Positions 19,705-52,584 of a DNA stretch of 64,000 bases are shown piece after piece. Every line of letters begins with the position of its first letter. Position 1 is the stretch's first letter. The stretch spans positions 2,114-66,113 of the forward strand of contig DIXO01000044.1 of assembly GCA_002428735.1 (NCBI GenBank), read 5' to 3'. A program made the position numbers and the translations under genes. The notes beneath the pieces were generated by a model. The model was given only the letters and a program-made list of their open reading frames with translations. It was not told where the DNA came from and did no database searches. The DNA is from Syntrophaceae bacterium UBA6078. Lineage in GTDB: Bacteria; Desulfobacterota; Syntrophia; Syntrophales; UBA2210.

Positions 19705-20439
19705 TCAATCAATTTTGACTGTGACGGATTTCTCAATGTCCTCAATAATCTTTGTCGGTGCCGCCAGAAATAAAAGCATCTCAACAAAGTATGGTTTTCG
19801 AGTGCCATAAACCTTCTCTGACAAATCTTGAAGAAGGGTACAATAGTTATGATAAGCGGTTTTATGTGAATGATACTGATGGGCAATTCCCGAAAGTGCA
19901 AACAGAGTCCGGGTGTCGTACTTGGAAACTGCCGTGTTGCGTCCGACCGGCTGCGGGAAAAGCTGTTTGTCATTGGAGTGGCGGAAAATTACCCAGTTTA
20001 AAGAAAAAACAGCCCGTGAATCATAAATAGCATATTTTCCCGGCTCCCAAAAGGAACTCAGTTTCGACAAGGAAGAAATCGAAGAAAATGAAGATCGGGT
20101 GAGCTTTCCTCGCTGGACCTCCTTTTTGAAAGTTTTGATAACCTCGGCATTGCGGTCGCCAACCTTAAATGTTCGGATTCCGCCCCAGTCACGGATAATC
20201 CAGTAGTGGATACTCAAATCATTATCCTGTTCTAATACAGGGGCAAGATTCTCTTTCAAATAGATGTTTTGCGAGAAAGATCCGATGACATTGACGGGGA
20301 TGTCTATTGGAAGGCCCGTGGGTAACTCCCAACGATATTCTGTTTCTAATTTTATGTTTCTCGCCATTTCTTTCAGATATTCAATCATTGTATTCATTCC
20401 GTTGCCTAACAGAGAAATCAGCCGCGACTGAAGTTTCAC
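19705..20439 (-). CDS. Orphan protein (AT-rich gene); central motif resembles the 'OGG-fold' hypothetical family
   Basis: 244 aa. The motif WGGIRTF...ISSLSKLSSFWEPGKYAIYDSRAV resembles the ..ASKxLHFxxPxxxxIxDSR.. motif of proteins annotated as 8-oxoguanine-glycosylase-fold; this is a memory-based, weak assignment. The listed GTG start overlaps the selA stop. An ATG at 20397 is an alternative start. Confidence 0.55.
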   Translation of the reverse strand: MKLQSRLISLLGNGMNTMIEYLKEMARNIKLETEYRWELPTGLPIDIPVNVIGSFSQNIYLKENLAPVLEQDNDLSIHYWIIRDWGGIRTFKVGDRNAEVIKTFKKEVQRGKLTRSSFSSISSLSKLSSFWEPGKYAIYDSRAVFSLNWVIFRHSNDKQLFPQPVGRNTAVSKYDTRTLFALSGIAHQYHSHKTAYHNYCTLLQDLSEKVYGTRKPYFVEMLLFLAAPTKIIEDIEKSVTVKID

Positions 20440-21854
20440 GACTCTCCGGCTATCCGTTTTATCCCGTCCCGTATCAAGGGAAAGTCCTCTTGTGCAATCG
20501 TTCGCAGGTCAAAAAGGACCCTGTCCTCGTAAATTCTTGCAATGATGGGAATTTCCAGCGTGCGCAACTTTCTCTCCAGCCTGCTCGCCGAGAGAGTCCG
20601 CGACTCCACCGCGATAACGGCGGTGGGGATCTCCTGCGTGGGAAGCGAACCGCCTCCGGCCATGGACGTGGCCTTCATCATGGAAAATTCCAGACCTTTC
20701 AGTGATAACTGTTTCAGGAGGGCGATCAGCTCATGAGCCCGTTTTTCGACCTCGGCCACCGGTTCGGTCAGCGCCCGGAGTACCGGTATGTCGGAAATCG
20801 CCCGACCGAGATCCAGATAATGGATCATGGTCGCCTCAAGGGCCGCCAAGGTTAATTTGTCTATCCGGAGGGCGCGATTGAGGGGGTTCTTCTTTATCTT
20901 CGCAAGGATCGCCCCCTTCCCCAGGATGACCCCGGCCTGCGGCCCTCCGAGAAGCTTGTCCCCGCTGAAGGTGACCACGTCCACCCCCGTCTTGACAACC
21001 TCCTGAACCGTCGGCTCCTTCTCGAAGCCATACATATCAAGCGGAACGAAGCAGCCGCTCCCCAGATCGTTCATCACCGGGACTCCCCTGTTGTTCCCCA
21101 GCGTCACCAGTTCTTCCAGACCAACCTCATTGGTGAATCCGAGCACCTTGAAGTTGCTCGTGTGCACCTTCAGAATCACTCCGGTAGTGCTTTCCACGGC
21201 ATTTTCGTAATCCGACAGATGGGTTCGGTTCGTTGTTCCCACCTCCCGGAGAACGGCGCCGCTTTTTCCCATCACCTCGGGGATGCGAAATTCCCCCCCG
21301 ATCTCAATCAATTCGCCCCGCGACACAATGGCCTCCTTCCCCTCGGACAGGGTGTTGAGGGCAAGGAGAACGGCGGCGGCGTTATTATTGACAATCAGGG
21401 CATCTTCGGCCCCCGATACGGAGCAGAGGAGTTCTCTCACGTGATCGTAGCGCACCCCCCGCTTCCCCGTGTCGAGATCGAATTCGAGATTTGAATATCC
21501 GGCGCTGACATCGATTATCCGTGCGAGGGCCTCAGCGCAGAGCGGGGCGCGCCCCAGGTTTGTGTGCAGGATTATGCCGGTCGCATTGACCACCCGGCGG
21601 AGGCTGGAGGTATACAGATCGAGAAGCCGTTTCCGTACCGCCTGCGCGGCCTCGGCTGCCGGCACAGGAAGAGGGTTTTTTCCTCCCTTTTTTGGATGCA
21701 GAATTTGCAGCCGCATCTCGTCGACCACTTGACGGCATTTCGCCACCACAATGTCCCGGGAGATCCCTTCACAGGAGCCGTCCTTTTCGAGAATGTGGAG
21801 CATATCGTCGATCTTCGGGAGATCTTTCAGCAGTTCTCTAGTTGCGTCATTCAT
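20436..21854 (-). CDS. selA: L-seryl-tRNA(Sec) selenium transferase
   Basis: The N-terminus MNDATRELLKDLPKIDDML aligns with the SelA N-terminal pattern. The PLP-lysine motif FSGDKLLGGPQAG is present. A GGAGG-type SD precedes the ATG at 21854. Confidence 0.9.
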   Translation of the reverse strand: MNDATRELLKDLPKIDDMLHILEKDGSCEGISRDIVVAKCRQVVDEMRLQILHPKKGGKNPLPVPAAEAAQAVRKRLLDLYTSSLRRVVNATGIILHTNLGRAPLCAEALARIIDVSAGYSNLEFDLDTGKRGVRYDHVRELLCSVSGAEDALIVNNNAAAVLLALNTLSEGKEAIVSRGELIEIGGEFRIPEVMGKSGAVLREVGTTNRTHLSDYENAVESTTGVILKVHTSNFKVLGFTNEVGLEELVTLGNNRGVPVMNDLGSGCFVPLDMYGFEKEPTVQEVVKTGVDVVTFSGDKLLGGPQAGVILGKGAILAKIKKNPLNRALRIDKLTLAALEATMIHYLDLGRAISDIPVLRALTEPVAEVEKRAHELIALLKQLSLKGLEFSMMKATSMAGGGSLPTQEIPTAVIAVESRTLSASRLERKLRTLEIPIIARIYEDRVLFDLRTIAQEDFPLIRDGIKRIAGES

Positions 21855-21940
21855 CCCGCTCCAAATCCTCCGCCTATCGGCAATCGGCACGTGTCAGACA
21901 TGAGTTTTAGGGGAAAAGGCCTGAAATTGCAAATGGGAAA

Positions 21941-39511: not shown

Positions 39512-40537
39512 ATGGTATTCGAAAGTGTCAAGCACGCATTGACCATAACGAGCTTCGTGTTCGTTATGATGCTGATCATTGAATACGTCAATGTACTAAC
39601 CAGAGGAGACTGGCAGGACTCATTACAGAAATACCCCTGGATGCAATATCTCCTCGCCGCTTTCTTAGGCGCCACGCCCGGCTGCCTGGGGGCGTTCACC
39701 ATTGTGGCCCTCTACGCCCACAATGCGGTCAGATTCGGCGCGCTGGTCACCGTCATGATCGCAACCAGCGGCGATGAAGCCTTCGTCATGCTCTCTCTGT
39801 TTCCGGGCACGGCAATCATTCTGACGCTGATCCTGATGTTAATCGGGATGGTCGCGGGATTCCTGACAGACCTGTTCTTCAAACCGGGGATGGTCGCCCT
39901 GGGGAGTCAAGACAGGAGATTTATATTTCATGATGAGGACTGTGTCTGTTATCCCCGGGGCGAAATCCTGAACCAGCTGAAAAACCTCACCCTGCAGCGG
40001 GGAGTGCTGATCTTTTCCCTGGTATTATTCATATTTGCGCTGATCTCCGGAGGGATGGGTCCCTCCGTGTGGAACTGGATAAAGGTGACCCTCCTGGGGG
40101 GCTCTCTTGTCGCGCTCTTTATTACAGCGACGGTGCCTGAACACTTCCTTGAGGAACACCTGTGGGAACATATCGTGAAAGTCCATGTACCGCGTGTATT
40201 CCTTTGGACATTCAGCGCATTGCTATTGATGGCTGTGTTGCTTCATTATCTTGATCTCGATTCCTGGATTCGCTCAAATTATCTGACCGTTCTCCTGATC
40301 GCATGCCTCGTGGGGCTCATTCCTGAATCGGGTCCGCACTTGATATTTGTAACCCTCTTTGCCGAAGGAGCGATTCCTTTCGGTATCCTCCTGGCGAGTT
40401 CCATCGTACAGGACGGCCATGGGATGCTCCCCCTGCTCGCGGAATCAAAAAGAGACTTCGTCTCCGTCAAGGGTATCAACCTGGCAGTGGGTTTGCTGGT
40501 CGGTCTGGCATGGTATGCAGGAGAGATCTATCTGTAA
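39512..40537 (+). CDS. 10-TM putative heavy-metal/manganese exporter family (ArsP_2-like)
   Basis: Its motifs TSFVFVMMLIIEYVNV...GATPGCLGAF...TSGDEAFVML...GLIPESGPH match my recollection of the 'putative manganese transporter' family. Not verified. Confidence 0.5.
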   Translation: MVFESVKHALTITSFVFVMMLIIEYVNVLTRGDWQDSLQKYPWMQYLLAAFLGATPGCLGAFTIVALYAHNAVRFGALVTVMIATSGDEAFVMLSLFPGTAIILTLILMLIGMVAGFLTDLFFKPGMVALGSQDRRFIFHDEDCVCYPRGEILNQLKNLTLQRGVLIFSLVLFIFALISGGMGPSVWNWIKVTLLGGSLVALFITATVPEHFLEEHLWEHIVKVHVPRVFLWTFSALLLMAVLLHYLDLDSWIRSNYLTVLLIACLVGLIPESGPHLIFVTLFAEGAIPFGILLASSIVQDGHGMLPLLAESKRDFVSVKGINLAVGLLVGLAWYAGEIYL

Positions 40538-40661: not shown

Positions 40662-42554
40662 ATGCAGTTACTGCCAACAGAGCTATCTATCGGGAACACG
40701 ATAATAAAGAACAGGACTATCATGGCCCCGATCAAAACGGGGTATGGAATACCCACAGGGGAAGTAACCGACCGTCATCTCCGGTTCTTCGAAAGGCGAA
40801 ACAGGCACGTCGGGGCCGTCACTCCGGAACCGTTTTTCCTGCACCCGGCACTGCGGGAATTGCCGGTTCAGATAGGGATTCACAGTGACGATATGCTGCC
40901 GGGGCTCAAGAGACTCGCGGATGTCATCCATGGAAAGGGGGCCCTGGCGATCGCCCATCTGAATCATCCGGGGAGAATGGCGAACCCAGCCATCCCGGGC
41001 AATCAATTTTTTTCCTCCTCTACGCGGATGTGTCCCTCCGGCGTCAAAGAACCTCAGGCAATGGATCAATCCCGCATCGAAGAGTCCCAACTACTCTTCG
41101 AGAAGGCCGCCGTCAGAGCCGAGAGGGCGGGGTACGATTTTGTTGAACTCCAATTCGGGCATGGATACCTGATCGCTCAATTTCTTTCGGAGGCAGTGAA
41201 TAACCGTACCGATCAGTACGGCGGGAGCTGGGAAAACCGGCTTCGTTACGGCCTCGAAGTTCTGGAACGGGTGAAAAAGGCCGTCACGCTTCCGATCATC
41301 GTCCGACTGAGCGCAGATGAGATGATACCGAACGGACTCAGACTCGAGGATGCGATGCGGCTCGCGGTCGCTCTCGAGGAACGGGGTGCGAACGCACTGC
41401 ATGTCTCAAGCGGTTCCGTCTGCGAAACGCCCCCCTGGTATTTCCAGCATATGGCAGTCCCCAAGGGGAAAACCTGGGACTTTGCTTTGCGTATCAGGGA
41501 GAAGGTGGGGCTCCCGGTGATTGCCGTCGGTCAGATCAATGAACGGAAGGATCCGGAAACAATTCTCCAAAACGATATGGCAGATGCTGTCGCCATCGGG
41601 AGGGCCCTCATAGCAGACCCTGATTTTGTAGGCAAGGTACTGGGAGAAATCAGCGATCCCATTCGTCCCTGCGCTTCCTGCCTCGAAGGGTGTCTCGGAG
41701 GAGTGAAGAGCGGAAAAGGTTTGATGTGCCTCGTGAATCCCACTGTCGGAAAGGTTGAAGAAGCGGTCCCCACGGTCGAGAAATCTCGGAACATAGCCGT
41801 TGTGGGCGGCGGGCCCGCAGGTATGGAAGCTGCGCTTGTCCTGAACGAGAGGGGGCACAATGTAACCCTCTACGAAAAGGACAAACTGGGTGGGCTGTTC
41901 AATCTCGCTTATCTGACGCCGAGAAAAGGGAACCTCAAACGAATAAACGATTATTTTATTCAAGAGGTGCAAAGGAAGATTTCCGTGGTCCACAGAGAAG
42001 CCGATGTAGAGAACCTGGTCGATTCGTATGATGCCGTGATCGTGGCGACGGGCTCTCACCCCCAGCCTCCACTCATCCCAGGGTTGAAGGAATGGAGATG
42101 GGCGGAGATTCTCCAGGAAGACCAAATGCCCGCAGGCAAAAAGGGCATCGTCGTCGGCGGCGGCTTCATCGGGGCCGAGACGGCCGAGGTCCTCGCCAGG
42201 AAGGGGAACGATATCACCATCCTGAAACGGTCACGAGAGATCGCCCCCGCTATGGAACCGATCGCGCGGAAACTGTTGCTACGGGCCCTGGAGGAACTGA
42301 ACATCCCCATTATCACGGACGCGGACGTCACGAGGGTTGAAGATGGAACGGTCTACTTTACACAAGGCGACGGGGAAAATTCCATCGAGGGTGTCGACTT
42401 TATCGTCTACACGAAGGGCATGGTGCCGGAGGATTCTCTCAAGGAACACCTTTCCGGGAAAATTCCGGTGTATGTGATCGGGGATTGCAGAGCGATAGGA
42501 AGGGTAATGGATGCCATCCACGATGCCTATGATTACGCCATGTCCATTTGCTGA
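40662..42554 (+). CDS. 2,4-dienoyl-CoA-reductase-like enzyme: Old-Yellow-Enzyme (FMN) domain + Fe-S linker + FAD/NAD(P) oxidoreductase domain
   Basis: AAAGGAGG SD precedes the ATG at 40662. The OYE pattern is NRTIMAPI...AHLNHPGR...GYDFVELQFGHGYLI. A Cys cluster RPCASCLEGCLGG....C follows, then two dinucleotide folds (VVGGGPAGMEAA, VVGGGFIGAETA). The listed start at 40359 overlaps the upstream gene. Confidence 0.85.
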   Translation: MQLLPTELSIGNTIIKNRTIMAPIKTGYGIPTGEVTDRHLRFFERRNRHVGAVTPEPFFLHPALRELPVQIGIHSDDMLPGLKRLADVIHGKGALAIAHLNHPGRMANPAIPGNQFFSSSTRMCPSGVKEPQAMDQSRIEESQLLFEKAAVRAERAGYDFVELQFGHGYLIAQFLSEAVNNRTDQYGGSWENRLRYGLEVLERVKKAVTLPIIVRLSADEMIPNGLRLEDAMRLAVALEERGANALHVSSGSVCETPPWYFQHMAVPKGKTWDFALRIREKVGLPVIAVGQINERKDPETILQNDMADAVAIGRALIADPDFVGKVLGEISDPIRPCASCLEGCLGGVKSGKGLMCLVNPTVGKVEEAVPTVEKSRNIAVVGGGPAGMEAALVLNERGHNVTLYEKDKLGGLFNLAYLTPRKGNLKRINDYFIQEVQRKISVVHREADVENLVDSYDAVIVATGSHPQPPLIPGLKEWRWAEILQEDQMPAGKKGIVVGGGFIGAETAEVLARKGNDITILKRSREIAPAMEPIARKLLLRALEELNIPIITDADVTRVEDGTVYFTQGDGENSIEGVDFIVYTKGMVPEDSLKEHLSGKIPVYVIGDCRAIGRVMDAIHDAYDYAMSIC

Positions 42555-42934: not shown

Positions 42935-43262
42935 GCCTTGTGGTTGTGATTATGGTACCAATGTCCTCAACATTAGCTTCTAGAAAAGCACAGCCATGCC
43001 AGTCCAGAAGCTCCACCACTGTCGTGTTCGAAAGGGAATTGGTCATTGTTCCGGTCGCGATGGACAGGGGTAAAATGGACGTATTCCCTCCATCCAGATT
43101 GGGAATCGCGCTCGAACTCCAATAACGTGAATCCCGTATACCCAACATAAACCGTTTGAAAACACATCGACAGATACAATAATGAATAGTTTGAAGCACA
43201 CGCCGATGCCTATCACGCCGAATTGGAAGCGGTACGCTGGTAAAGCCCCCTCCCCCGGCGAG
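42935..43262 (+). pseudogene. Decayed paralogous copy of the 3' two-thirds of the small U-x-x-C ORF plus the first ~45 codons of the methyltransferase gene
   Basis: Aligns base-for-base, by eye at about three-quarters identity, with 44300..44635. The equivalent of the methyltransferase ATG is ATA. A 1-nt deletion (GAAAACAC versus GAAAAACAC) shifts the frame and TAA/TGA codons follow. Homology stops at CCCCCGGCGAG. Confidence 0.65.
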
Positions 43263-43342
43263 CTTTTAAGGAAATCTTTCACAGGGTTCTAAGATCAGCG
43301 AGCGGAGGCCCACGACACACAAAACATAGGGAGAAATTACAC

Positions 43343-43954
43343 ATGGAACTCATGCGCGTTATCGAAGAGCGGCGTAGTATTCGCAGATTCAGGGACGACC
43401 CGGTTTCGGAGGAGATAATCAATGAGCTGCTCAACGCGGCCCGTCTGGCTCCCTCGGGAACCAATACCCAGGTATCACGGTTTGTTGTCGTCAAATCGCC
43501 CGCCATGCGCGCCAAACTGGGGACCGCCACACCGTACACATTTATCACCCGGGCCCCCGTTATTTTTGTGTGCTGTTGTGATTTGACGGCCATGACGACC
43601 CGGGAATTGCGCCGGGCCGAATTACTCGAAGCCGGGATCTTCGAGGGCGTCGATGTGAATGAGGATATGGCCGATTCAAGAGCACGCGCCTTCAATCAGA
43701 TAGGAGTGGAAGCGGCGCGGGCATATCTTTCAATGAACACCGCCATAGCGATAGAGCACATGGTTCTCCGGGCCGTTGACCTCGGTCTGGGAAGCTGCTG
43801 GGTTGGAGGATTCGACAAGGAGAAAGTACGCGAGATACTGGAACTGGATGACAGCATCCACATCGTTATGCTTCTCCCCGTTGGGTATCCGGATCAGTCG
43901 CCCCCGCAGCGCCCCCGCTTCCCGGTGGACCATCTGGTCCTGAAAACTGTTTGA
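43343..43954 (+). CDS. Nitroreductase family protein
   Basis: IEERRSIRRFRDDPVS...LNAARLAPSGTNTQ...GLGSCWVGGF is the classical nitroreductase (FMN) pattern. Confidence 0.85.
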   Translation: MELMRVIEERRSIRRFRDDPVSEEIINELLNAARLAPSGTNTQVSRFVVVKSPAMRAKLGTATPYTFITRAPVIFVCCCDLTAMTTRELRRAELLEAGIFEGVDVNEDMADSRARAFNQIGVEAARAYLSMNTAIAIEHMVLRAVDLGLGSCWVGGFDKEKVREILELDDSIHIVMLLPVGYPDQSPPQRPRFPVDHLVLKTV

Positions 43955-44108: not shown

Positions 44109-44137
44109 TTGACATACTCTGTTGCAGTACCTAGACT
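44109..44137 (+). promoter_or_regulatory. Sigma-70-type promoter candidate
   Basis: TTGACA, a 17-nt spacer, then TAGACT. It lies about 70 nt upstream of the SD/ATG at 44209. Confidence 0.45.
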
Positions 44138-44208
44138 CGCTTGGGTTATTGAATTACTGGCCTTTAAAACAGGAGAAAACAACGAAGGGTAAAGGAGGTC
44201 TCAAAACG

Positions 44209-44484
44209 ATGTTGGAATTGCTGGTTTTTCACAGCGGAAATCCCGCCTGAATGTCGTGCAAAAAGGCTATAGGCGTAGCCAGAGAAATGAAGGAAAAGTA
44301 TATGAATAAACTGAAAGTGGCGATCCACACGACAGACTCCAAAGAGGCACAGCCGTATCAGTTCAGAAGTTCAACCAATGTCTTGCTTGAGAAGGAACTG
44401 GTCCCTGTGGCGGTCGCAACGGACAGGGATAAAATGGATGCATTTCTTTCCGCGAGATTGGGAACCGGACCCGAAACCCGGTAG
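44209..44484 (+). CDS. Candidate small thioredoxin-fold-like selenoprotein (U-M-S-C motif; in-frame UGA at 44248..44250)
   Basis: AAAGGAGG (44191..44198) lies 10 nt before the ATG at 44209. Thirteen sense codons are followed by TGA, then the listed 77-aa ORF in the same frame. The product begins MLELLVFHSGNPA-U-MSC-KKAIGVAREMKEKY...: a beta strand followed by UxxC at a helix start. The 44251 ATG has no SD. Confidence 0.55.
44265..44280 (+). promoter_or_regulatory. Candidate SECIS stem-loop
   Basis: GGCUA-UAGGCG-UAGCC: 5 bp with a 6-nt loop, beginning 17 nt after the U of the UGA. Confidence 0.3.
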
Positions 44485-44496
44485 CGTGAATCCTGT

Positions 44497-45123
44497 ATGC
44501 CCAATATAGAGCCGTTTGAAAAACACAGCGACAGATACGACGAATGGTTTGAAGCACACGCCGATGCCTACTACGCCGAATTGGAGGCGGTACGCCTGGT
44601 CATGCCTCCTCCCCCGGCGAGGGGGCTGGAGGTCGGCGTCGGTTCAGGCAAATTCGCGGTTCCTCTGGGGATACAGATCGGTGTGGAACCATCGGAGAAG
44701 ATGGCGGGCAAGGCGGAGAAACAGGGAGTCCGGGTTTTCCGGTGCGTGGCTGAGAAGCTGCCCTTCCCTGCCCCTGAATTCGACTTTGTGCTGATGGTAA
44801 CAACCATCTGTTTTGTCGATGATATTCTCCAGTCATTCAAGGAAGCATTCCGGGTGCTGAAGCCGGGGGGGTGCGTTATTGTCGGCTTTGTGGATAAAGA
44901 AAGCGAATTGGGCAAAGAATACATCGCCAAGCGGGATGAAAGCGTTTTCTACAAAGACGCCACCTTTTTCTCAACCCAGGAAGTGAGCGGGCATCTCAGA
45001 GATGCCGGATTTGAAAATCCGTCCTTCAAACAGACGCTGATCCCCGGAGAGCCACAGGGAACAATCAAGGACGGCTTCGGTACAGGCGCATTTGTGGTAG
45101 CCAAAAGTGTGAAACAGGGTTGA
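44497..45123 (+). CDS. Class I SAM-dependent methyltransferase (Methyltransf_11-like)
   Basis: SAM-binding motif I (GLEVGVGSGKFAVPLG) is present, with post-I/II motifs (FDFVLMVTTICFV, LKPGGCVIVG). It starts 12 nt after the small ORF's stop and has no SD of its own. Confidence 0.85.
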   Translation: MPNIEPFEKHSDRYDEWFEAHADAYYAELEAVRLVMPPPPARGLEVGVGSGKFAVPLGIQIGVEPSEKMAGKAEKQGVRVFRCVAEKLPFPAPEFDFVLMVTTICFVDDILQSFKEAFRVLKPGGCVIVGFVDKESELGKEYIAKRDESVFYKDATFFSTQEVSGHLRDAGFENPSFKQTLIPGEPQGTIKDGFGTGAFVVAKSVKQG

Positions 45124-52101: not shown

Positions 52102-52584
52102 ATGAGTGATACGGAAAGAGTCGATCCCACACCGGCCCCCGACTTCGAGCTTGCCGACAGCGAAGGCCAACCGGTAAAATTGTCCGGCTACAAGGGCAGC
52201 CGACATGTCGTTCTTATCTTTAACCGCGGCTTTGTCTGACCATACTGCCGAAAGCACATGGCGCAGTTGCGCCGTGACTATCAGGAATTCGTGAAAAGGG
52301 GCGCCGAGGTCATCGCCATCGGCCCTGAGAAACCGCACGCCTTCGCCGACTGGTGGCGTGAACATAAGATGCCCTTCCCGGGACTGGCCGACCCGGAGCA
52401 CCGCGTATCAAAGCTGTACGGGCAGGAGGTCCGGATCTTCAAACTGGGACGCATGCCGGCACAGCTCATCATCGACAGGAACGGCATGATACGCTACAAA
52501 CACTACGGCGCTTCCATGAAGGACATTGCAGAAAACAGCGAACTGCTCTCAAGGCTGGATGAATTGAACAGGGAAGAAGCGTAA
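52102..52584 (+). CDS. Peroxiredoxin/redoxin (AhpC-TSA family)-like selenoprotein, U-P-Y-C motif (UGA at 52237..52239)
   Basis: TAAGGAGGTGAGG SD precedes the ATG at 52102. The frame is open apart from one TGA. The product ...PAPDFELADSEGQPVKLSGYKGSRHVVLIFNRGFV-U-PYC-RKH...AIGPE... has the thioredoxin-fold Prx/BCP layout, with U at the active-site Cys position. The track shows only 52258..52584. Confidence 0.8.
52257..52276 (+). promoter_or_regulatory. Candidate SECIS stem-loop
   Basis: CAUGGCGC-AGUU-GCGCCGUG: an 8-bp stem (one G-U pair) with a GU-containing tetraloop, starting 20 nt after the U of the UGA. Confidence 0.45.

Follow-up and report, generated by a model that had tools for sequence, protein, structure and literature searches.

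Syntrophaceae bacterium UBA6078 carries, on contig DIXO01000044.1, a short reading frame whose start codon stands directly behind an in-frame TGA, and the locus raises the question of whether one reading frame ends here and another begins or whether a single gene runs through the TGA. We analysed it within a 64,000-nucleotide stretch of the contig (positions 2,114 to 66,113; hereafter the window, in whose numbering positions are given unless another locus is named). An original prediction from the DNA had proposed a hidden UGA-interrupted open reading frame (ORF) with a read-through U-M-S-C motif, and our analysis finds a conserved in-frame TGA within one gene, most plausibly encoding selenocysteine (Sec, U). 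Our overall explanation, to which we give a probability of about 0.88, is that 44209..44484 on the forward strand is one gene, tsoX, for the 91-residue selenoprotein TsoX, with the UGA decoded by means of a hairpin and the product serving as a thioredoxin-fold redox carrier with a U-x-x-C active site. The stretch is a mis-annotated gene, arising from a gene-calling error within a known family; our confidence in a Sec-encoding tsoX gene is high, and in the specific redox-carrier mechanism lower.

Routine annotation recovers only part of this gene. A standard ORF listing yields just the 77-amino-acid (aa) piece at 44251..44484, as the original prediction had pointed out, and the publicly available calls for two near-identical metagenome contigs (JGI 3300001567 and Logan SRR943309) contain the identical piece. 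The full coding sequence comprises 91 codons, including one Sec codon, and ends with TAG at 44482-44484. Thirteen codons (MLELLVFHSGNPA) run from ATG 44209 to the TGA at 44248..44250, with ATG 44251 directly after it, and the read-through product is MLELLVFHSGNPA joined to MSCKKAIGVAREMKEKYMNKLKVAIHTTDSKEAQPYQFRSSTNVLLEKELVPVAVATDRDKMDAFLSARLGTGPETR across the TGA position. The TGA is the predicted Sec codon (U14) and provides the first residue of U-M-S-C, the Cys17 codon lying at 44257-44259. Ten nucleotides before ATG 44209 the sequence reads as a Shine-Dalgarno (SD) element, AAAGGAGG (44191..44198, +), while no canonical SD is seen in the sequence before ATG 44251. A promoter-like TTGACA-17 nt-TAGACT (44109..44137, +) lies ∼70 nt 5' of the start codon; it is a consensus match only (10 of 12 positions), in a region that has three such sites compared with 1.0 +/- 1.0 in shuffles. 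All of these signals had been placed correctly beforehand, the promoter being recovered independently by a consensus scan.

The read-through product (with U written as C) matches the NCBIfam model NF045809, “HSGNPxU motif (seleno)protein TsoX”, with E = 1.5e-39 and 134.1 bits (cutoff 52), residues 3-82 aligning with positions 2-81 of the 82-position profile and crossing the TGA; the truncated 77-aa piece alone scores 103 bits. Precomputed annotation also assigns PF26315:TsoX to homologs and to the public gene call of the window piece. The residues F-H-S-G-N-P-A-U-M-S-C encoded at 44227-44259 are the defining H-S-G-N-P-x-U followed by x-x-C, a motif found as the strict pattern in 98 of 101 related loci and, with variants, in all 101. 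The window protein is a plain member of TsoX, a family that is named, published and curated (NCBIfam, Pfam, a 2025 paper and a 2026 review). The hidden Markov model (HMM) search of the TGA-as-U translation that had been proposed as a check is what places it there, and the suggestion that it belongs to no named family and may be new or divergent is not upheld.

The passages of the 2026 review (PMC13188914) that describe TsoX ascribe it, as a UxxC selenoprotein with one Sec, to Haft & Tolstoy 2025 (mSystems 10:e0141724), and explain Tso as “three selenoprotein operon”, beside which lie additional selenoprotein genes that are not otherwise related. The window protein shares with the family the full-length HMM match, the exact FHSGNPxU, the U-x-x-C, a length of ∼85-91 residues and a host of the Desulfobacterota/Syntrophia type, and differs from the TsoX consensus in an extra 6-residue C-terminal tail (GTGPETR). 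Its gene, unlike those in the Tso operon, does not lie beside tsoA, tsoB or tsoC, from which the name derives but which the HMM does not include, and is paired instead with a class I methyltransferase gene. Neither the TsoA motif LULAxC nor the TsoC motif NEPxGxxU occurs in any frame of the 64-kb window, nor does a credible TsoB UxxxxU rhodanese loop. Motifs of TsoB and TsoC were seen near tsoX in one of ∼101 related loci, many of which are on short contigs. In that locus (L016 1469-3515, +), from a Desulfobacula sp. metagenome-assembled genome (MAG), a TsoB-like rhodanese-type loop (...FY-U-AGLT-U-VRS...) and a TsoC motif (...LNEPNGKP-U...) stand directly 5' of tsoX.

Whether the TGA is recoded can be judged from its conservation. 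The loci compared were 18 from reference genomes or MAGs, 80 more from metagenomes, two of TsoX fusion genes (one of them on two contigs) and three with variant motifs, taken in total as 101 loci and ∼80 distinct genes. A TGA occupies the homologous position in 18/18 genome loci and 101/101 overall. The genome loci (Syntrophaceae, Desulfobacteraceae, Desulfobulbus, Desulfatiglandales and others; 52-69% identity) all encode M-x-E-L-x-V-F-H-S-G-N-P-x before the TGA and have an AGGAG-type SD before the upstream start. MAGs ascribed to Desulfatirhabdium butyrativorans, Desulfonema limicola and Desulfobacula are among the carriers of related genes. Column entropy over the 12 upstream codons is 0.34, 0.34 and 0.92 at codon positions 1, 2 and 3, compared with 0.50, 0.35 and 1.01 in the downstream part and 1.40 in the 5' untranslated region, and because this codon-position pattern is of the coding type, unlike that of the untranslated region, the upstream extension evolves as protein. 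The observation that would have spoken against the original prediction, homologs starting at the Met of MSCKK with nothing upstream, is not what the loci present. Given that the TGA, the upstream extension and the hairpin described below recur in all 101 related loci, their co-occurrence is far beyond chance. One Deltaproteobacteria MAG locus (L003 1945-1950) is peculiar in having ATA (ATA AAG GAA...) at the start of its N-terminal extension, with a good SD 8 nt before it; the other loci begin with ATG or GTG at this point, and the ATA may reflect either a sequencing error or an unusual start.

The arrangement TGAATG is nevertheless a common one for stopping and restarting, and the TGA could be a true stop that ends a 13-codon leader peptide translationally coupled, through the TGA-ATG overlap, to a 77-residue protein starting at Met 44251, the product that gene callers annotate. 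Of 98 loci, 56 have ATG and 13 have GTG directly after the TGA, as such coupling would have it; in at least 18 of the 98, however, the codon there is one that does not initiate (GTA, AAA, AGG, CGG, GCG, AAC or GTT), and in 11 further loci it is CTG, ATT or ATA. As the next codon cannot initiate in many loci, stop-and-restart is excluded as a general mechanism. The 13 upstream codons are also as conserved in protein as the rest of the gene, and in the structural model their residues form strand beta-1 and the active-site loop. A 77-aa product would have a single redox residue in place of the pair and would lack a core strand, and its start at 44251 lacks an SD. Finally, the family HMM is continuous over the position, as is a rare Cys form, P0071 (...FHSGSPTCTSC..., 110 bits to NF045809), in which Cys aligns with the TGA; in another relative, P0129 (CKNC), it is the first Cys of a CxxC that does so. 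Homologs spanning the TGA with Sec or Cys aligned, which the original prediction had proposed to look for, are thus at hand, together with a non-redox form (P0078) in which U is replaced by S and C by Y. We regard a true stop at 44248 as very improbable.

Full-length database entries have W or G at the TGA position, which raises the alternative that another genetic code applies and makes the TGA a Trp or Gly codon; a further variant of this doubt is that the gene is a pseudogene interrupted by a nonsense mutation, and decay does occur at this locus, where a decayed partial copy of the tsoX-methyltransferase gene pair lies ∼1.3 kb upstream. The simplest explanation of the W and G entries is that metagenome gene callers translated the TGA under code 4 or 25. 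Searched exhaustively with the HMM, 1.84 billion representatives returned only 79 relatives, nearly all starting just past the TGA or at a later Met. Against decay stands the presence of the TGA in 101/101 loci from many Desulfobacterota lineages, in coding sequence that is intact and under purifying selection, as well as selA in the window. Against an alternative code, the neighbouring methyltransferase gene and many other genes end in TGA as an ordinary stop; because it terminates the adjacent gene, the code is standard and TGA is not globally reassigned. Both variants are more remote still than a true stop, and on the evidence of the aligned sequences TGA 44248 almost certainly encodes selenocysteine. 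Two loci with identical tsoX regions (L091 4001-4252 and L093 3628-3879) have two in-frame TGAs (...LLFHS-U-NPS-U-MSC...), the Gly codon of the motif having changed from GGA to TGA; the additional TGA may encode another Sec, or may stem from a recent nonsense mutation or from misassembly.

Sec insertion in bacteria calls on a hairpin in the message, and the original prediction had noted one at the distance expected of a bacterial Sec insertion sequence (bSECIS). This hairpin (44265..44280, +) pairs 44265-44270 with 44275-44280 (GGCUAU/GUAGCC) around the loop AGGC (44271-44274), and, reaching from G18 to C33 with the U of UGA as 1, consists of five Watson-Crick pairs, a closing U.G and a 4-nt loop. 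It lies 14 nt from UGA to stem and 20 nt from UGA to loop, and it has a folding energy of -7.7 kcal/mol by itself and of -8.6 in context. Published bSECIS criteria (PMC13188914) are an apical loop of 3-9 nt on an upper stem of 4-16 bp, a G in the first two loop positions, a UGA-loop distance of 16-37 nt and a minimum free energy of -7.5 kcal/mol or lower. The hairpin lies within all four, with G at loop position 2; that G depends on the closing U.G, since without this pair the loop becomes UAGGCG, with no G in its first two positions. All 21 aligned sequences have U.G or U-A as the closing pair.

Conservation of the hairpin is consistent with a function in the RNA. The share of paired cells is 96.5% for 19 sequences and, for 21, 93.7% (reached by 4/500 shuffles), compared with 17-48% in controls with the 3' partner slid. 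We had considered covariation as proof of the hairpin and rejected it on the first 19 sequences as not significant, using instead the bias among synonymous codons and two divergent sequences. The stem codon for Ala20 is GCT in 19/19 sequences (36% elsewhere in these genes), that for Ala24 is GCC in 18/19 (24%), that for Lys19 is AAG in 15/19 (22%) and that for Val23 is GTA in 12/13 (17%). Because the two Ala codons are fixed on different synonyms, each the one that pairs, we argue for selection on the RNA. The divergent sequences are two fusion genes discussed below: in the ArsM fusion (L022/L023) U21-A30 has become C-G, and the thioredoxin reductase (TrxR) fusion (L021), although it encodes A-L-D-A-A and not A-I-G-V-A, retains a hairpin, its UGGAU loop being shifted in register by one nucleotide. 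The hairpin is present in all 79 distinct genes, with loop xGGx in nearly all and AGUU in three, and the folding of the region that had been suggested as a check therefore returns a conserved SECIS-type stem-loop. RNAfold also predicts an optional 4-bp lower helix that encloses it (44254-44257 with 44287-44290, +). This helix has 80% of cells paired over 19 loci, is absent in Syntrophaceae-type loci with AGC for Ser16, is probably not essential and was not counted in the element. An Rfam scan of the window gave no match.

Part of the machinery for Sec incorporation is encoded in the window, in the form of selA (L-seryl-tRNA(Sec) selenium transferase; 20436-21890, -; TIGR00474, 604 bits). Genes for selB, selC and selD were not found within the 64 kb, which contain no tRNA gene of any kind. 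A second candidate Sec gene, at 52102-52584 (+), encodes an AhpC/TSA (Prx-like, SelL-related) thiol:disulfide oxidoreductase with UxxC at TGA 52237-52239 (...VVLIFNRGFV-U-PYC-RKH...). With U as C, its scores are 103 bits for Pfam AhpC-TSA and, below the cutoff of 120, 80 bits for the SelL-related redox protein model NF040769. The original prediction had placed selA and two clearer Sec genes in the window; selA was recovered and the Prx-like gene is probably one of the two, while the other was not found in our crude and noisy screen for ORFs bridging a TGA.

To examine the fold we used an AlphaFold2 model, built from a 42-sequence alignment, of the closest full-length homolog (P0004, 72% identical), in which Trp stands at the Sec position and the last ∼25 residues are non-native read-through that lowers the TM scores. 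The model has a mean pLDDT of 83.5, with a core at ∼90 or higher, and consists of beta1 (2-8), the loop with the Sec position, alpha1 (15-34), beta2 (35-41), alpha2 (45-49), beta3 (56-60), beta4 (63-65) and alpha3 (73-90). This beta-alpha-beta-alpha-beta-beta-alpha topology is that of a predicted thioredoxin fold whose first helix begins with the U-x-x-C dyad, as the original prediction had read from the sequence. The top 50 Foldseek matches in the PDB, at probability 1.00, were all thioredoxins or thioredoxin fusion tags, with TM scores of 0.46-0.61 (most of them 0.54-0.61) and E values from about 3e-4 to 2e-3. By sequence the relationship is more distant. A Pfam search of the window protein gave no match (in a library copy without the PF26315 model), and sequence and profile searches of the PDB gave nothing significant, with 1NHO at E = 0.22. 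The relative P0129 passes both NF045809 (53.6 vs 52) and Pfam Thioredoxin_3 (41.3 vs 24.8), and aligns with the window protein without gaps, placing C-K-N-C on U-M-S-C and S-T-P-T-V on S-S-T-N-V; because it is made through P0129, the sequence link to thioredoxin models is only indirect. The cis-Pro of thioredoxins is not present at the expected position. The loop that would hold it has Thr56-Asn57 (codons 44374..44379, +), both invariant in 41-42 homologs, in keeping with the earlier reading of T-N for T-P. With the cis-Pro missing, the chemistry may differ from that of classical thioredoxins, and TsoX is, as modelled, a divergent thioredoxin-fold protein without cis-Pro.

Among the known systems close to TsoX are the small archaeal-type thioredoxins (Thioredoxin_3 PF13192, TIGR00411 MJ0307, TIGR00412 MTH895/ArsE), which it resembles in size, predicted fold and the position of the dyad at helix 1, and to which P0129 provides a gapless link of CxxC on UxxC. 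In contrast to these, the window protein scores below the models, has Sec for the first Cys and H-S-G-N-P-x in the preceding loop, and has the invariant S-S-T-N-V of TsoX where they have the cis-Pro S-T-P-T-V. We also compared other UxxC selenoproteins of thioredoxin fold, namely Sec-thioredoxin, Sec-glutaredoxin, SaoT (NF040730), the HUIPC-motif protein (NF047660) and a homolog of the AhpF N-terminal domain (TIGR02187). Like TsoX, these have Sec for the attacking Cys of CxxC and a SECIS within the ORF just downstream, and often lie beside other selenoprotein genes (PMC13188914). The window protein differs in its insignificant scores to their HMMs (E = 0.085-0.14), its motif context and its lack of the cis-Pro. 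Two features of membership in the thioredoxins, the cis-Pro and a significant model score, are accordingly absent from it. Fusions of the AhpF/NTRC type, in which a flavoenzyme reduces its own thioredoxin-fold domain, have a counterpart in L021, with an N-terminal TsoX-type domain and TrxR; that fusion belongs to the relative, whereas the window tsoX is free-standing, with no adjacent TrxR gene identified.

Twelve nucleotides 3' of tsoX, and co-directional with it, is a gene for a class I S-adenosylmethionine (SAM)-dependent methyltransferase of 208 aa (44497..45123, +; Pfam Methyltransf_11, 62 bits), a probable operon partner. The enzyme has weak NCBIfam similarity, below cutoffs, to DVU_1556-family and arsenite methyltransferases. 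It was considered as an ArsM ortholog and rejected, the 31% identity being confined to the SAM-binding core (generic SAM-fold similarity). Orthologs follow tsoX in L013 (44% identity), L101 (46%) and L007, and more distant methyltransferases in L036, L037 and L046. The original prediction that tsoX heads a methyltransferase operon is supported here by the co-directional gene, and does not extend to the family, in which a co-directional Methyltransf_11-type neighbour accompanies 5/80 distinct genes, the window included. After the methyltransferase gene there is a 261-nt gap with another promoter-like site, and then a gene for the alpha subunit of an ADP-forming acyl-CoA synthetase.

Upstream of tsoX are genes for a flavoenzyme of the OYE/FadH type (ending at 42554) and a nitroreductase (43343-43954), separated by a gene-poor gap of ∼790 nt. 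Within this gap, 42970-43265 (+) is a decayed partial duplicate of the 3' half of tsoX and the 5' end of the methyltransferase gene, with ∼81% DNA identity over ∼285 nt; tblastn recovers TsoX residues 41-89 at 57% and methyltransferase residues 9-39 at 72%. The methyltransferase ATG has become ATA and there are frame-breaking indels, and the segment is the remnant of a tandem duplication of the gene pair. Farther upstream, ∼3.7 kb 5' of tsoX, is a gene for a permease of an arsenic-efflux family (39512-40537, +; NF037962, 151 bits, cutoff 100), any functional link of which to the tsoX-methyltransferase pair is speculative.

Elsewhere the neighbours are of other kinds. A J-domain protein gene is co-directional with tsoX in 8 distinct genes. 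The largest apparent neighbour clusters were rejected, since they proved to be a convergent membrane-protein gene and its shadow ORF. A DsrE-family gene with its own in-frame TGA (FYVUGVC) accompanies tsoX in 7/18 genome loci and one metagenome locus, lying 15-20 nt 3' of it in L005, L006, L010, L013, L014, L015, L018 and L097. Its product (∼103 aa; PF02635, 43 bits; ...GDFYV-U-GVC-MKSHG...) matched no NCBIfam model at E <= 1e-8. In these loci of the Desulfobacterales type the two form a selenoprotein gene pair that is not present in the window.

Two natural fusions offer the most telling leads on what TsoX does. In L021 (197-1424, +; ENA ERZ24794671 NODE_558517) a TsoX-type domain (M...VVHSGDPNUKPC...) is fused to a complete thioredoxin-disulfide reductase, with 370 bits to TIGR01292, a CAVC active site and 252-283 bits to AhpF models; the database entry begins after the TGA, and the architecture was not found in the selenoprotein table of PMC13188914. 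In L022 (2923-∼3990, +) and the identical L023, a TsoX domain (M...VIHSDNASURSC...) is fused to an ArsM-type methyltransferase whose frame passes through a second TGA (...SSWSQ-U-IAGAIPG...), making it a probable double selenoprotein. An ArsR/HTH_5 regulator gene lies ∼1 kb upstream, and the database entry (P0100, 269 aa) is truncated by a TGA on either side. The second Sec (WSQUIAG) fits the UxxG motif given for arsenite-methyltransferase selenoproteins (PMC13188914). By the usual logic of domain fusion, these two genes suggest that TsoX is reduced by flavoenzymes of the TrxR type and works with methyltransferases.

Taken with the methyltransferase gene 12 nt downstream, the fusions make a role as selenol/thiol redox carrier likely. 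We predict that translation initiates at ATG 44209 behind its strong SD and that UGA 44248 is decoded as Sec by SelB and Sec-tRNA(Sec), which would be recruited by the small GG-loop hairpin lying 14-32 nt downstream within the coding sequence. The product would be a minimal thioredoxin-fold protein in which helix 1 carries at its N-terminus the U-x-x-C redox pair of Sec14 and Cys17. It would most likely cycle between selenol/thiol and selenenylsulfide, as a dedicated low-potential reductant or as a partner in thiol-selenol exchange, with re-reduction by a TrxR-type flavoenzyme, and in the window it may serve the methyltransferase encoded next to it.

The main alternative for this role is that TsoX carries a metalloid or metal, with Sec14 and Cys17 binding As(III), Se, Hg or similar and delivering it, much as ArsD delivers arsenite to ArsA, to an efflux system or to a methyltransferase that is fused or encoded nearby. 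ArsD is itself a thioredoxin-fold protein. The ArsM-type fusion partner with its own Sec and an ArsR-type HTH gene upstream, the permease gene at 39512-40537, the weak similarity of the window methyltransferase to arsenite methyltransferase models and the loss of the cis-Pro, which suggests non-classical thioredoxin chemistry, all point in this direction. Yet the fusion to a bona fide thioredoxin reductase in L021 better suits an electron carrier, genes for arsenic or metals are not near most tsoX loci, the window methyltransferase is below ArsM-level similarity, and two unrelated genes as well as the decayed remnant separate the efflux gene from tsoX. We think a metalloid carrier rather unlikely; the two roles are not mutually exclusive.

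A broader proposal would treat TsoX as a thioredoxin-fold subclass, with cis-Pro changed to Thr-Asn and the attacking Cys to Sec, that acts as dedicated reductant or metalloid carrier for SAM-dependent methyltransferases including those of the ArsM type; the window pair would then be a two-gene module, independent of the Tso operon, that methylates a soft metalloid or a sulfur or selenium compound. We offer this tentatively, as a conjecture with the odds against it.

Several observations weigh against the redox-carrier selenoprotein as we describe it, both in the decoding of the UGA and in the role of the product. TsoX is listed among predicted, not verified, selenoprotein families (PMC13188914). 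The single-sequence fold of the hairpin is unremarkable (z = -1.5; 19/200 shuffles fold as well), and covariation is thin, with one compensatory change in 19 sequences, equalled by 119/500 shuffles, and still thin in 21 sequences, where compensatory changes at two pairs are equalled by 23/500. The stem also overlaps the conserved K-A-I-G-V-A codons, so that its conservation is partly at the protein level. The structural model is that of a homolog with Trp at the Sec position and not of the window protein, which is itself below every thioredoxin HMM threshold (NCBIfam thioredoxin-type models, E = 0.085-0.14) and is missing the canonical cis-Pro. As for the partner, the window methyltransferase is not an ArsM ortholog, its pairing with tsoX is seen in so few of the distinct genes, and no neighbour is conserved over most of the ∼80 distinct tsoX loci. 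We nevertheless favor a single Sec-encoding tsoX gene with a probable redox-carrier product.

The practical value of this result lies in annotation, the case being a routine selenoprotein gene mis-annotation of a known kind. Relatives of TsoX in public databases are nearly all called as fragments of 58-77 residues without the Sec and the first beta strand, with only a handful of ∼140 at full length. Because the gene is called as Sec-less fragments, selenoproteome counts for Desulfobacterota and Syntrophia miss tsoX unless the NCBIfam rule is applied. For the function of TsoX, leads come from its prediction as a thioredoxin fold, from Thr-Asn standing in place of the cis-Pro, from the fusions to TrxR and ArsM and from the occurrence of the gene mostly away from the Tso operon; these are modest additions to what has been reported for the family, and some of them may be known already.

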